This document shows, piece after piece, positions 957 through 5,196 of a stretch of 18,371 nt of DNA. Source of the stretch: Candidatus Heimdallarchaeota archaeon (lineage in GTDB: Archaea; Asgardarchaeota; Heimdallarchaeia; Heimdallarchaeales; Heimdallarchaeaceae); NCBI GenBank assembly GCA_016840095.1, contig JAEOSZ010000076.1, positions 1 through 18,371 on the forward strand. Direction: 5' to 3'. A program made the position numbers and the translations under genes. The notes beneath the pieces are model-generated. The model did no database searches. It was not told the origin of the DNA and saw nothing but the letters and a program-made list of their open reading frames with translations. Every line of letters begins with the position of its first letter. The stretch's first letter is position 1.

Positions 957-1946
957 TTATTCTTTTTCTAATTTGGTTTTAATCACTTTCGCAATTTGTT
1001 TTGAAATTACAGGAGGAACAGCTTCTCCAATTTGGTTGAACATCCCTTCAACAGATCCTGTAAAAACAAAATCATCTGGAAAACCCATCAGCCGTGCTTG
1101 TTCTCTTACTGATAAAGGCCTATCCTCTATAGGGTGAATAAATCTTGATTTACCCATTATTGTTGGTGCTACATCTTTCTCATCTAACTTTGTCCAATTT
1201 CGATTTTCTCTAGAAGCTCCCTTGAAGTATACAGCTGATTGACCTTTTCGAATTCCCAGCCCCTCTTTCTTTACTTGTTTTGGAAAAGGTAATCTAAAAT
1301 GATTTGGTACATCATTAGGATAAGCGGGGGAAGAAAGATCAAGTATTGAATCCGCAACTTTTATCCTTCTTTTAGGCATCAAATCAAAATGCACATTCGA
1401 TATAAATACTCTGTTTCTATAACTTGGACAACCATATTTTTCACAAGATATGAAATTAAAGTGAATCTTGCTATAACCAACTGTTTTGAATTCCTCCTTG
1501 ATTATTTCTTTTCCTTCAGCATCTACAATGGGCAGAACATTTTCTATTACAAAATATTTAGGTGAAAGGTCACCAATAATTCGTGTTGCATGGAATATTA
1601 AATCTCCTTGAGGATCATCATAAAATCTTTCAAAAGGAGTCTTCTTTCTTCTTGGATTTGCTGCTGTAAAAGGCTCACAAGGAGGAGAAGCTAGAACAAC
1701 ATCTATTTCTTCACCTATCTTATCAATAATTTCTAAACTATGAACTGTACGAATATCTCTAATCCATACTTTAGATTTTGGAAAGTTATGAGTATAAGTT
1801 TTAGCTGCAGATTCATCTTTTTCAATAGCTAATTTATCAATAAAACCCTCTTGCACGAAACCTAAACTAAAACCTCCTGTTCCTGAGAAAAGATCAACAA
1901 ACGAAAATTCTCTCTGTTTTGAACTAGAGCTCATCTTTCTGCACAA
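957..1946 (-). CDS. C5-cytosine methyltransferase (Dcm/Dnmt family), orphan; true start possibly ATG at 1934
   Basis: Motif I DLFSGTGG, motif IV SPPCEPFT, motif VI ENV, motif VIII PSYRNRVF, motif IX REQARLMGFPD, motif X QIGEAVPP. Confidence 0.92.
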   Translation of the reverse strand: MCRKMSSSSKQREFSFVDLFSGTGGFSLGFVQEGFIDKLAIEKDESAAKTYTHNFPKSKVWIRDIRTVHSLEIIDKIGEEIDVVLASPPCEPFTAANPRRKKTPFERFYDDPQGDLIFHATRIIGDLSPKYFVIENVLPIVDAEGKEIIKEEFKTVGYSKIHFNFISCEKYGCPSYRNRVFISNVHFDLMPKRRIKVADSILDLSSPAYPNDVPNHFRLPFPKQVKKEGLGIRKGQSAVYFKGASRENRNWTKLDEKDVAPTIMGKSRFIHPIEDRPLSVREQARLMGFPDDFVFTGSVEGMFNQIGEAVPPVISKQIAKVIKTKLEKE

Positions 1947-1956
1947 CTTCTAAAAT

Positions 1957-2035
1957 TGGTGGGGCAGGCAGGATTTGAACCTGCGACATCCACTGTGTGA
2001 GAGTGGCATCATAGGCCAGGCTAGATCACTGCCCC
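1957..2035 (-). tRNA. tRNA-Val (anticodon CAC), CCA encoded, no intron
   Basis: Reverse complement GGGGCAGTGATCTAGCCTGGCCTATGATGCCACTCTCACACAGTGGATGTCGCAGGTTCAAATCCTGCCTGCCCCACCA. Acceptor stem GGGGCAG/CTGCCCC, anticodon arm CCACT-CTCACAC-AGTGG, T arm GCAGG-TTCAAAT-CCTGC. Confidence 0.97.
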
Positions 2036-2074: not shown

Positions 2075-2100
2075 AATTGCATCTTAAAATAGTATATAAT

Positions 2101-2320
2101 GCCCCCGAGGTTAACTCTAAACATCATTTTAAGGGATTCACCCACATCAGTTAGTTGAGCTCCTCAGGAGCAAACTGTTGTCTACCAGGGTTGACCGTGT
2201 TTCACAGTGTAGAATGTCTCACTCTACTCAACAGGAGCCCGTATGGTAGCCTATTGCCTTGTAATTGCACTTTCTTTCCTAGTCGGTTGATACCATCTCT
2301 AGAAAGTCCTCGATAAAGGC
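2101..2320 (-). ncRNA. Putative unclassified structured non-coding RNA (~220 nt)
   Basis: 46% GC (101/220, hand count) against AT-rich flanks. The ends pair (GCCUUU..GAGG / CCUC..GGGGGC) and there are several internal hairpins whose G-U pairs work only on the minus strand. A BRE/TATA lies upstream. Confidence 0.6.
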
Positions 2321-2338
2321 AATTATACATGGGTTTAG

Positions 2339-2357
2339 TATATATTGAACTTTTTTG
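2339..2357 (-). promoter_or_regulatory. BRE/TATA promoter of the putative ncRNA
   Basis: Minus strand CAAAAAAG-TTC-AATATATA, with the TATA starting about 27 nt upstream of G2320. Confidence 0.5.
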
Positions 2358-2365
2358 TCTTATAC

Positions 2366-2388
2366 AAAAGAGAAAAAGGAAAAATAAG
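2366..2388 (-). terminator. Oligo-U terminator after tyrS
   Basis: Minus strand CTTATTTTTCCTTTTTCTCTTTT immediately after the tyrS stop codon. Confidence 0.55.
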
Positions 2389-3462
2389 TTAAAGAGATTT
2401 GACTGCTTCAACTAAATCTTGATGTTTTTCGAAATACTTTCTTGATGGTTTCAAAATCTCATTCACTGTTTTTGCTAAACTCAATTTCAAATCTAACGGA
2501 TGTACAGAACCTTCCATATAATCAATCTTGAAAGATTCATATGAATTGTAGATTAGATCACCGCCAAACTTCTCGTCTCTTTCAATTCTGAATTCATCAA
2601 ACATGTCAAAAACTATGTATTGTACCATTTCAGTGATAGGATTTCCAACTACTTGCTTTGGAGGACATTGTGCTTTTTTGAGTTTCCTCACAACATCTTC
2701 TTCACTATCATGAATGAATATACATGTTTCTGGTTTTGATTTACTCATTTTGGCATCGATTTGATCAGCAAGATCTGGAACAGCTTCAGCATCCATTTTC
2801 TTACCAAAGCCTTGTAATCCTGTTATGAGTGGAGTATGAATACAACTTGGTTTTGTTCTACCTAGCTTCTCAGCTGTATCTCGAGCTAGCATGTGGGCTT
2901 TTCTTTGATCCATTCCTCCATAAGCTAAGTCTATTTCCATGTCATAGATATCAGCTACTTGCATAGCTGGATAGTAGATAAAACCAGATTCTATTTCACC
3001 TTCAGCTTTTCTTCCCATTACAGGAAGAGTTCTGAGAACTCTTGTAAGAGTATTTGCTTTAGCTACTCTGATGACTTTTTCCCAATATGTTATCTTTTCA
3101 GCAAGTTCAGATGCCCAAATATATTTTACATTTGGTCCTTTAGCACCAATTGATTCAAAGGCTTTTTTGAAATATTCTCCTGCCAGTTTGATTTTTTCCA
3201 TATCAGCTCCTAGTTTGTTATTAATCCAACTGTGCCAATCGGCAAGGAAAATTATTACTTCGAAACCTGCATTCATTAAGTCCTTAATTTTGTTTCCACA
3301 AACAATACCAGTTCCTAGATGAACAAGACCAGAAAGTTCATACCCAATGTATGCTCTTGGTTTTTCCTTTTCTTCCAAAATCTTTCTAATTTCCTCTTCA
3401 AGGATAACTTCTTCAGTATTTTTTGTAACTAGTTTTATTCTTTCTTCAATAGACATTAACAT
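2389..3462 (-). CDS. tyrS: Tyrosyl-tRNA synthetase (archaeal); start probably at 3456
   Basis: AYIGYE.SG.VHLG (HIGH-like), LADWHSWIN, YPAMQVAD, GGMDQRKAH, KMSKS and HPLDLK motifs. GGGTGA SD lies 6 nt before the second ATG. Confidence 0.97.
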   Translation of the reverse strand: MLMSIEERIKLVTKNTEEVILEEEIRKILEEKEKPRAYIGYELSGLVHLGTGIVCGNKIKDLMNAGFEVIIFLADWHSWINNKLGADMEKIKLAGEYFKKAFESIGAKGPNVKYIWASELAEKITYWEKVIRVAKANTLTRVLRTLPVMGRKAEGEIESGFIYYPAMQVADIYDMEIDLAYGGMDQRKAHMLARDTAEKLGRTKPSCIHTPLITGLQGFGKKMDAEAVPDLADQIDAKMSKSKPETCIFIHDSEEDVVRKLKKAQCPPKQVVGNPITEMVQYIVFDMFDEFRIERDEKFGGDLIYNSYESFKIDYMEGSVHPLDLKLSLAKTVNEILKPSRKYFEKHQDLVEAVKSL

Positions 3463-3627: not shown

Positions 3628-5196
3628 TTAAATTTGTTTAAACTCAATTATCTTCAAACCGGTTGGTTTTTTAGAAATTTCTCCTTTTCTTGCACCAATT
3701 ACTGTTTTGATTCCTTTGCCATTTGATCGATCTAATAATCTCTGAGTTATTATACCATCAATAACTAAAATATTACCTTTTTCGATTTTTTCTAAAGAAT
3801 CAAAAATTTCTGCTGCAGGAGACCTGAGAATTTCCTTTTCAGCTTCATCAAATACAATTGCTTCCAGTTTTGTTTTAACTGTTTTAACTGCATTAGTTAG
3901 ATATTCAGGAAGTTCAACTTTTCTTATTTCTCTTCTTGGAGGACGTTGACTTGTTGTAGATCTTGAATAAGTTCTTGAGCCAGAATGAGAACTTGGTCGA
4001 GAACCAGATCGAGAACTAGGACGTGATCCAGGTCGAGAATCAGTTCTAGGACGTGAGGAGGTATGAGATGGTCTACTTGATGATGGTCTTCCTGATGATG
4101 GCCTACTTGATGTTGGTCTTGGAGATGAAGGTTTCTGAGTAGTTGTTGGAGCAGTTTTCTTTTCTACTTTACCTTTACTAACTGTTGCAGCTTTTGTAGG
4201 TTTAGCTGGAACTTTCTTCTTACTTACTGTTTTTGTTTCCTTCACTTCAGCTTTAGGTTTCTTATCATCAGTTTCCTTTCTTGATAAAGTAAACTTTTTC
4301 AATCTCTTCTTAGGAGACTTAGATTTATCAAGGAACTCTTTAACTGTGAGATCTGCATCTTTACCTGTTAAGAAAACTGCTTTTTCTAATGGAACAGCTC
4401 CTTTCAAAGCTTGATTGGTTTCCTCTTCATTAAGGTCTTCAACTTCCTTTCCTTTTGGAGCTCGAGCTACAAATTCAACGTGTGATACTTGTAGTAATTC
4501 TTTTAGAATTAAATCCCCGCCTCTGTCACCATCTAGAAAAGCTGTTACTGTTTTCTTTGTAATTAAATCGATCAATTTAGGGGGTATACTTGTTCCATTA
4601 ACTGCAACTGTATTGTCAATACCATATTTTAGAAGATTGACAACATCTGCTCTACCCTCAACTAGAATTGTTTTCTTCTGTCTTTCAAATCCAGGACCAG
4701 CGGCAAATCCTTCATCACTGATACTAACTACTTGACTTGATTTAGAAGATTTTTGTACTTCCATACTTATTGATGAAGAAAAGGGACTAACATTTTGATC
4801 CCATTGACGCATGATTTCAGAAGCACGGTCAACAATTGATTGACGTTTATTGATTCTGACATCTACTATTTCCTCAAGCTTAACAGCACAACTGCATGGT
4901 CCTACTCTATCAACAGTTTCAAGAGTAGCTGCTAATATCGCAGTTTCCATCCGGGATAAGCTTGATGGGATTATTATTCTCCCAGAAGTTTTTCCTTTCT
5001 TGCTACTAAGTTCAACACTAATTCTTCCTATTCTTCCTGTTTTTTGGAGTTCGCGAATATCGAGATTTTCACTCAAAAGCCCATCTGTTTGTCCATAAAT
5101 CCCTCCGATTATGTCTGGCTTTTCAACGACTCCATCTATTTCAAAAGATGCTCTTATTTCATACTTTGTTGTTGAAGCATCTGTTTTTGCACCCAA
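3628..5196 (-). CDS. dnaG: Archaeal DnaG (TOPRIM; exosome-associated RNA-binding subunit) with a long disordered linker
   Basis: N-terminal 'GVVEKPDIIGGIYGQT.GLL...ELQKTGRIGRI', TOPRIM 'VEGRADV' and 'DGDRGG', C-terminal 'IDGIITQRLLD'. TTG start with AGGTGA SD. Confidence 0.96.
   Translation of the reverse strand: MGAKTDASTTKYEIRASFEIDGVVEKPDIIGGIYGQTDGLLSENLDIRELQKTGRIGRISVELSSKKGKTSGRIIIPSSLSRMETAILAATLETVDRVGPCSCAVKLEEIVDVRINKRQSIVDRASEIMRQWDQNVSPFSSSISMEVQKSSKSSQVVSISDEGFAAGPGFERQKKTILVEGRADVVNLLKYGIDNTVAVNGTSIPPKLIDLITKKTVTAFLDGDRGGDLILKELLQVSHVEFVARAPKGKEVEDLNEEETNQALKGAVPLEKAVFLTGKDADLTVKEFLDKSKSPKKRLKKFTLSRKETDDKKPKAEVKETKTVSKKKVPAKPTKAATVSKGKVEKKTAPTTTQKPSSPRPTSSRPSSGRPSSSRPSHTSSRPRTDSRPGSRPSSRSGSRPSSHSGSRTYSRSTTSQRPPRREIRKVELPEYLTNAVKTVKTKLEAIVFDEAEKEILRSPAAEIFDSLEKIEKGNILVIDGIITQRLLDRSNGKGIKTVIGARKGEISKKPTGLKIIEFKQI
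3986..4126. repeat. Degenerate in-frame tandem repeats in dnaG: 5x12 bp (3986-4045) and 4x15 bp (4067-4126)
   Basis: 12-mers: tgagaacttggt, cgagaaccagat, cgagaactagga, cgtgatccaggt, cgagaatcagtt. 15-mers: gatggtctacttgat, gatggtcttcctgat, gatggcctacttgat, gttggtcttggagat. They encode xxSR and PSSxR units. Confidence 0.8.

Follow-up and report, generated by a model that had tools for sequence, protein, structure and literature searches.

A probable three-motif box H/ACA guide sRNA of the Pab40/HgcG kind between tyrS and tRNA-Val in Heimdallarchaeota

Introduction

Archaeal box H/ACA guide sRNAs consist of one to three hairpins. In each, a large internal loop, the pseudouridylation pocket, separates a lower from an upper stem, tandem sheared G.A pairs form a K-turn or K-loop 5-6 bp above this pocket, and an ANA box, usually ACA, follows on the 3' side at 14-15 nt from the target position. 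The Pab40/HgcG/Afu4 family of guide RNAs has so far been described in Euryarchaeota, namely in Thermococcales, Archaeoglobus, and Methanocaldococcus. Pab40 and HgcG are one and the same RNA, represented in Rfam as RF00064; in P. abyssi the transcript is 234 nt long and starts at the first H/ACA motif (PMC4652768). Its motif 1 acts on U2588, a domain-V site conserved with eukaryotes, and its motif 3 on U2016 in the loop of helix 69 (H69), while motif 2 is odd and weakly active. In Pyrococcus H/ACA sRNPs, helix H2 has 5-6 bp and the ANA box lies 14-15 nt away from the target (PMC2377435).

The other archaeal RNA that should be considered here is sR-h45 of Haloferax volcanii. This double stem-loop H/ACA sRNA is responsible for Psi1940 and Psi1942 in the H69 loop and for Psi2605 in domain V, and it makes both H69 pseudouridines by way of a “UNUN” configuration; snR191/U19 is named as the H69 equivalent in eukaryotes (PMC7075261). 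Our literature search found no description of H/ACA sRNAs in Asgard archaea.

Here, we describe a locus from a Heimdallarchaeota MAG. With a probability of about 0.88, we read it as encoding a stand-alone, about 230-nt box H/ACA guide sRNA with three motifs, which corresponds in Heimdallarchaeota to Pab40/Pf7/Afu4/HgcG. An initial annotation, made from the DNA letters without database searches, had proposed a novel class of structured RNA closed by a long terminal stem. The RNA is not a new class; it is of a known kind, now found in Heimdallarchaeota.

The Locus and Its Conservation

By “the window” we mean the whole stretch of DNA analyzed, 18,371 nt in length, which is contig C59 of a 3.44-Mb MAG. 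The sRNA lies between tyrS and a tRNA-Val gene, on the same (minus) strand as both. RNA position 1 corresponds to window position 2320.

2086-2320, minus strand: whole predicted sRNA transcript, its 5' end set where conservation begins and its 3' end within the oligo-U UAUUUU (2086-2091); both ends are predicted
1957-2035, minus strand: tRNA-Val(CAC), from the Rfam scan

The product of tyrS is a tyrosine-tRNA ligase (NCBIfam NF006330, 430.6 bits; Pfam PF00579) and is 94% identical to its counterpart on a Heimdallarchaeota AB_125 contig. The neighbors had thus been named correctly in the initial annotation. Its GC-enriched island of 46% is there as well, with a GC content of 0.46 over 2101-2300 compared with about 0.29-0.39 in the flanks. 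The predicted length of the RNA is about 225-235 nt. When relatives are aligned, conservation sets in sharply at GCCUUU (2320) and fades past GGGGC-AU, at about 2099.

Of 24 same-genus genomes searched by BLAST, 23 have the element, with identities of 73-96%. We also built a covariance model, R1, and searched it against the genomes of the family (30 genomes from five genera, two of them single-contig) and against other families of the order. R1 matches the window at 2093-2322 on the minus strand (269.9 bits), the strand that had been chosen initially, and finds exactly one copy per genome in 29 of the 30 family genomes. In the other families of the same order it returned essentially nothing, the exception being one weak match of 24.3 bits. 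In 14 named contigs, AB_125 among them and the majority titled Heimdallarchaeota, tyrS is directly followed by the sRNA.

Some further observations concern the surroundings. Where homologous loci were compared, the order tyrS - sRNA - tRNA-Val appears to be kept throughout the family. About 10-20 nt past tRNA-Val, and on the same strand, a C5 cytosine methyltransferase gene begins (957-1946, minus strand; PF00145, TIGR00675 dcm). An ORF of 69 aa at 2202-2411 (minus strand) was considered as a coding gene and rejected: it has no Pfam family, and its conservation pattern is RNA-like.

Structure of the RNA

The single sequence folds with a minimum free energy (MFE) of -69.1 kcal/mol (z = -2.79), and 0 of 200 shuffles did as well. 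Together with the sharp conserved boundaries, this bears out the earlier suggestion of a standalone structured ncRNA. The RNA is neither a tRNA nor RNase P RNA, as had been stated; the RNase P RNA of this genome lies elsewhere (G000:C122, 156.8 bits).

How the RNA folds is another matter. The MFE fold draws a long-range stem, whereas the ensemble centroid consists of three hairpins, and RNAalifold on 21 genus sequences likewise gives three separate hairpins with no long closing stem. We wrote out an explicit H/ACA model of three hairpins, all built alike from a lower stem, an internal loop, an upper stem, and a small cap stem. Under this model, 94.5% of cells in a MAFFT alignment are paired and 12 pairs are compensatory; covariation is 0.239 compared with 0.152 in shuffles, and 0 of 500 shuffles are as high. 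A second alignment, which is model-based and leans toward the three-hairpin model by construction, covers 27 sequences from five genera. Here the paired cells make up 94.0%, compensatory changes are seen at 28 of the 55 pairs, none of 500 shuffles is as high, and slid controls never exceed 9 compensatory pairs. Throughout these 27 sequences the internal-loop strands are invariant and the stems vary, which is the pattern expected of guide sequences.

The long stem deserves the same scrutiny. In the initial annotation it ran GCCUUU...GAGG / CCUC...GGGGGC, and a novel ncRNA class closed in this manner would pair 2320-2305 with 2117-2101 and hold the remaining helices inside. The two ends are indeed complementary, the pairing is kept in about 94-100% of cells, and no Rfam family reaches its gathering score in this RNA. 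This pairing carries no information, because it is built from invariant sequence: covariation is 0.087 compared with 0.092 in shuffles, 432 of 500 shuffles are as high, and C.A mismatches arise at the one position that varies. In hairpins 1 and 3, on the contrary, the local lower stems gain compensatory changes when the other genera join the alignment, and a role as rRNA guides accounts for the invariant “stem” segments. With the centroid and RNAalifold also on the side of three hairpins, we regard the closed novel class as very improbable. Conservation and covariation among relatives speak for a conserved RNA and for three hairpins in place of the closing stem.

The first hairpin of the three-motif H/ACA sRNA has the following parts.

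2256-2320, minus strand: hairpin 1, with lower stem GCCUU(U)/(A)AAGGC, from RNAalifold and pair counts
2308-2314 and 2265-2268, minus strand: guides of hairpin 1, 5' AUCGAGG and 3' GCAA, invariant in 27 sequences
Within hairpin 1, minus strand: upper stem CUUUCU/AGAAAG, 6-7 bp
2298-2299 and 2277-2278, minus strand: K-turn signature of hairpin 1, GA plus GA, with a 3-nt bulge UAG
2252-2254, minus strand: ANA box of hairpin 1, AUA here and AAA or ACA in relatives, A-N-A in 27 of 27 homologues

Hairpin 1 agrees with the K-turn consensus, having a bulge of 3 nt above 6-7 bp. Its cap stem covaries (GGC/GCC, AGC/GCU, UGC/GCA), and its three helices (helices 1-3) are 94-99% paired, with compensatory changes present. 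The ANA box sits 14 nt past the top of the 3' guide.

A related single hairpin exists outside the family. The weak R1 match mentioned above (24.3 bits, E 8e-4), from another family of the same order, is a stand-alone hairpin at L153:1501-1618 on the minus strand (G040:C66:21859-21976), and it has the guide strands of hairpin 1 (UAUCGAGGACUUUCU ... GUGCAAAA). In the family of that genome, the hairpin 1 module may be a separate one-hairpin H/ACA sRNA.

The second hairpin of the window is the least regular one.

2182-2249, minus strand: hairpin 2, with lower stem CUACCA/UGGUAG
2237-2242 and 2188-2193, minus strand: guides of hairpin 2, 5' ACGGGC and 3' CAACCC, invariant (27 sequences)
Within hairpin 2, minus strand: upper stem CC-UGUU/AACA-C-GG, 6 bp
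2228-2229 and 2202-2203, minus strand: K-turn signature of hairpin 2, GA plus GA, with a 5-nt bulge
Within hairpin 2, minus strand: cap stem GUAGAGU/AUUCUAC
2176-2178, minus strand: ACA box of hairpin 2, ACA in 26 of 27 homologues and AUA in 1, in the same column

In helices 4-6, which form this hairpin, 5, 5, and 3 pairs show compensatory changes. Pairing is poorest in its upper stem (80.8%, the lowest of all helices), and its K-turn is atypical: the bulge has 5 nt, and a clade of 6 genomes has UA where the 5' GA would be. The ACA box follows 14-15 nt past the top of the 3' guide. Twin T-loop hairpins at 2194-2227 were tried as another fold of this region and rejected, as the second of them (ACUG/CGGU) cannot form in several relatives; its bases are part of hairpin 2, where they lie in the covarying upper stem and the K-turn.

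2101-2171, minus strand: hairpin 3, with lower stem GCUCCUGAG/CUCGGGGGC, 9 bp
2156-2162 and 2112-2115, minus strand: guides of hairpin 3, 5' GAGCUCA and 3' GUUA, with AGCUC and GUUA invariant
Within hairpin 3, minus strand: upper stem CU-AAC/GUU-U-AG, 6 bp with one U.U
2147-2148 and 2124-2125, minus strand: K-turn signature of hairpin 3, GA plus GA, with a 3-4 nt bulge
Within hairpin 3, minus strand: cap stem GGG/CCC
2095-2100, minus strand: 3' tail AUUAUA, a degenerate terminal box with AUU right after the stem and AUA three nt later

In the counts for helices 7-9, the lower stem of hairpin 3 is 98% paired and has 4 compensatory pairs, and in the upper stem three of five pairs switch from AAC/GUU to GGU/ACC. 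Past the hairpin, the first A of the tail is conserved in most homologues and the third position is A, U, or other. The triplet found 15 nt after the pocket reads AUU, ACU, or AUA, a clean ANA being present in only part of the family.

All told, the lower stem, pocket, and upper stem of an H/ACA motif are predicted in each of the three hairpins by RNAalifold and supported by covariation, and the GA/GA pairs are correctly positioned in all three hairpins of the window. The ANA spacing of 14-15 nt after hairpins 1 and 2 and the upper stems fit the constraints reported for Pyrococcus (PMC2377435). Of the helices that had been drawn from the letters, relatives preserve GGG/CCC as well as CUACCA/UGGUAG and ACUUUC/GAAAGU, the latter two showing compensatory changes; the hairpin GCUCC-UGA-GGAGC is disrupted in 7 of the 20 distinct relatives.

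Predicted rRNA Targets

No rRNA genes were found in the source MAG, and for this reason the targets were read in rRNAs of the same genus. Every U in the LSU and SSU rRNA of the closest same-genus genome with rRNA (G013) was scanned; G004 and G005 were also used. Positions were carried between species by our own offset arithmetic from E. coli and yeast numbering.

The top-scoring site of hairpin 1 is UUGC-UA-CCUCGAUG, with 4+8 bp around UA, and 0.5% of shuffled guides score as well. We take it, from our own offset arithmetic, to be the equivalent of E. coli 2496, P. abyssi U2588, and yeast Psi2865. The top-scoring site of hairpin 3 is UAAC-UA-UGAGCUUC in the helix-69 loop, again with 4+8 bp, and 2.5% of shuffled guides score as well. 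Helix 69 could be identified directly from its sequence, which in this genus is GGAGC-UAACUAU-GAGCUUC, and the site presumably corresponds to E. coli U1915, possibly also to U1917. If hairpin 3 pairs by AGCUUC alone, UAUG is left unpaired, which is a “UNUN” configuration. In both hairpins the 3' guide gives only 4 bp. The two independent best matches thus fall on the two sites that have been experimentally assigned to Pab40 motifs, U2588 by our own mapping and U2016.

For hairpin 2 there are two candidates. Candidate A is the A-loop, GGGUUG-UUC-GCCC (E. coli U2554), with 6+4 bp in a UNN configuration. Candidate B is GGGUU-UA-G(A)CCGU (E. coli U2586 equivalent), with 5 bp on one side and 1+4 bp around a G.A mismatch on the other. 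Since 18% of shuffled guides match rRNA as well as the best match of hairpin 2 does, neither candidate is significant alone. Pocket strands complementary to rRNA around an unpaired U-N are thus seen for hairpins 1 and 3. Both candidate sites of hairpin 2 were proposed earlier for motif 2 of the Pab40 family (PMC2377435).

All four candidate sites are identical in the three genus LSU rRNAs. Guides and targets are both invariant within the genus and offer no guide-target covariation to read; the one A-to-C change in the hairpin 3 guide has no matching change in H69 of G005.

It is worth asking whether hairpin 2 guides at all. An H/ACA sRNA could have only hairpins 1 and 3 as active rRNA guides, with hairpin 2 an orphan, a guide for something other than rRNA, or a structural or assembly module. 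Its best rRNA match is no better than that of shuffled guides, one clade has partly lost its K-turn, which is atypical to begin with, no helix of the RNA is paired less well than its upper stem (80.8%), and motif 2 of Pab40 is likewise odd and weakly active (PMC2377435). On the other hand, both loop strands (ACGGGCUC, GUCAACCC) are invariant over five genera while the stems covary, a pattern that speaks for a conserved partner in base pairing. AACCC(U) in the 3' guide is moreover common to the RF00064 consensus, and all 27 sequences have the ACA box (AUA in one) at the proper spacing. We consider it unlikely that only hairpins 1 and 3 are active rRNA guides.

Alternatively, and as a tentative suggestion only, hairpin 2 could be retargeted or have dual specificity: it would pseudouridylate the A-loop (E. 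coli U2554) through a noncanonical 5'-UNN-3', possibly U2586 too, and in one clade it would do so without a canonical K-turn. The A-loop U2554 equivalent is, we assume, the site of yeast Psi2923. If this were true, a single Heimdallarchaeal sRNA would guide modification of H69, the Psi2865 equivalent, and the A-loop, for which eukaryotes use several separate snoRNAs.

The rRNA genes themselves show some features of interest. The LSU rRNA gene of G013 (L033, G013:C12) has a 154-nt insertion right after GUGAGA, at reverse-complement locus coordinates 4586-4739. The insertion lies at about E. coli A2600/C2601, is absent in G004 and G005, and probably represents an intron of the rRNA, situated in the peptidyl-transferase region. 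The genus LSU rRNA genes (G004, G005, G013; L031-L033) are about 3380-3580 nt long compared with the 2987 positions of the archaeal model, a length that suggests insertions or expansion segments. The genus helix 69 stem, GGAGC/GAGCUUC, is unusual and is matched by the hairpin 3 guide.

Promoter-Like Elements and Transcript Ends

2341-2358, minus strand: promoter-like element, a purine-rich BRE (ACAAAAAAG) and then a TATA-like box (UUCAAUAUA), at -38 to -21 from the first G of the RNA

A BRE/TATA ahead of the RNA had been noticed in the initial annotation, as had a separate one ahead of the tRNA gene, and both have held up. The BRE/TATA-like sequence in the window is ACAAAAAAGUUCAAUAUA (2341-2358) and is conserved across genera: the motif GACAAAAAA(G/C)TTCAA(T/G)ATA, in other genera TTAAAGATA / GTTAAATA, occurs at an equal upstream distance in 27 homologous loci. 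Judged by sequence and position, this element would act as a promoter and the sRNA would form a separate transcription unit. A U-run is present downstream of the sRNA in most homologues, and U-rich terminator-like runs follow tyrS.

The second promoter-like element, A-rich and TATA-like, precedes tRNA-Val at 2056-2076 on the minus strand. In homologues, a motif (A)ACAGAAAAAATAAATA appears about 20-45 nt downstream of the sRNA; the copy in the window lies about 20-40 nt upstream of tRNA-Val. This motif is probably the BRE/TATA of the tRNA gene.

Could the element be a structured tyrS 3' UTR or tRNA-Val 5' leader, with a cis-regulatory or processing role, and no independent gene? It shares its strand with both neighbors, and the synteny is kept in the family. 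Such a reading has to contend with the terminator-like runs after tyrS and with the conserved BRE/TATA-like elements, one at -38 to -21 of the RNA and another before the tRNA. It gives no role to the H/ACA features and the rRNA complementarity, and the related single hairpin with the same guide stands in another family at an unrelated-looking AT-rich locus. We hold a UTR or leader to be extremely improbable.

Comparison with Known Guide RNAs

At gathering thresholds, an Rfam scan of the whole window returned tRNA-Val only. At permissive thresholds, RF00064 HgcG (Pab40) aligns from model positions 1-276 with window 2092-2377 (34.3 bits, E 6.1e-8 in a 501-nt search), which is below its gathering score of 77. 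The first 57 model positions are unstructured and align to the promoter region, in keeping with the reported start of the Pab40 transcript at its first H/ACA motif (PMC4652768). The locus was absent from the result of a whole-genome RF00064 look-up, whose controls were uninformative, with matches in bacteria and over the cut-off in 0 genomes. At the gathering score the RNA belongs to no Rfam family, but it is related to a known one. With a full-length subthreshold match, H/ACA features, and Pab40-like targets, the claim of a novel ncRNA class has to be given up.

The likeness to Pab40/Pf7/Pho40/Afu4/HgcG (RF00064) lies in the three tandem H/ACA motifs within about 230 nt, in the common guide cores (CGAGGA / UGC.A, AACCCU, GUUA), in the predicted targets of motifs 1 and 3 (P. 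abyssi U2588, by our own mapping, and U2016 in the H69 loop), and in a motif 2 that is atypical in both RNAs. There are also differences. The Heimdall RNA is AT-richer, with about 44% GC, and has K-turns with small cap stems in place of K-loops. The 5' guide of its motif 3 is GGAGCUC, compared with GGUUAGC in the consensus, and fits the lineage's own H69 stem. Its motif 2 has a 5' guide without the extra stem-loop, its terminal ANA is degenerate, and its host is an Asgard MAG. The putative orthology to Pab40/HgcG is based on architecture, guide cores, and predicted targets, the RNA being too diverged for the Rfam threshold.

With sR-h45 of Haloferax volcanii, the RNA shares the combination of an H69-loop guide and a domain V guide in one sRNA, and its hairpin 3 could leave UAUG unpaired in the same “UNUN” manner. 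Unlike the three closely spaced hairpins here, sR-h45, by its description, has two hairpins with a 56-nt linker and no counterpart of hairpin 1.

The eukaryotic snoRNAs snR191/U19 (H69), snR46 (yeast Psi2865), and snR10 (Psi2923) resemble the RNA in mechanism and rRNA positions, the equivalences for snR46 and snR10 being our assumption from yeast numbering. They differ in their hairpin-hinge-hairpin-tail layout with H and ACA boxes, and they have no K-turn, with Nhp2 in place of L7Ae. No sequence homology is claimed.

Conclusions

The protein machinery that such an RNA would need is encoded in the same genome, with Nop10 (49.9 bits), Gar1 (38.5 bits), and the DKCLD domain of Cbf5 (61.7 bits) all above their Pfam cut-offs. 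From what is known of the family, L7Ae would bind the K-turn of each hairpin, and Cbf5-Nop10-Gar1 would dock on the lower stem and ANA box. Each internal loop would then pair through its two strands with the 23S rRNA that flanks an unpaired U-N, and this U would come to lie in the active site of Cbf5 and be converted to pseudouridine. For hairpin 1, the predicted target is the U in GCUUGC-U-A-CCUCGAUG, near the peptidyl-transferase center, and for hairpin 3 it is that in the helix-69 loop, UAAC-U-A-UGAGCUUC. For hairpin 2 it may be E. coli U2586 (GGGUU-UA-GACCGU) or A-loop U2554 (GGGUUG-UUC-GCCC). Transcription, RNP assembly, and the rRNA modifications are steps that we infer.

Please note that these genes score far too low to be picked up by the current Rfam model (34 vs 77 bits). 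The structural alignment of 27 sequences could seed a better model and help to annotate GC-rich islands in AT-rich Asgard genomes. As we read it, this locus adds Heimdallarchaeota, Asgard archaea that stand near the origin of eukaryotes, to the range of the Pab40/HgcG/Afu4 guide-RNA family. Guided pseudouridylation of the H69 loop and of sites near the peptidyl-transferase center is predicted here, with guides that work as they do in other archaea and in eukaryotes.
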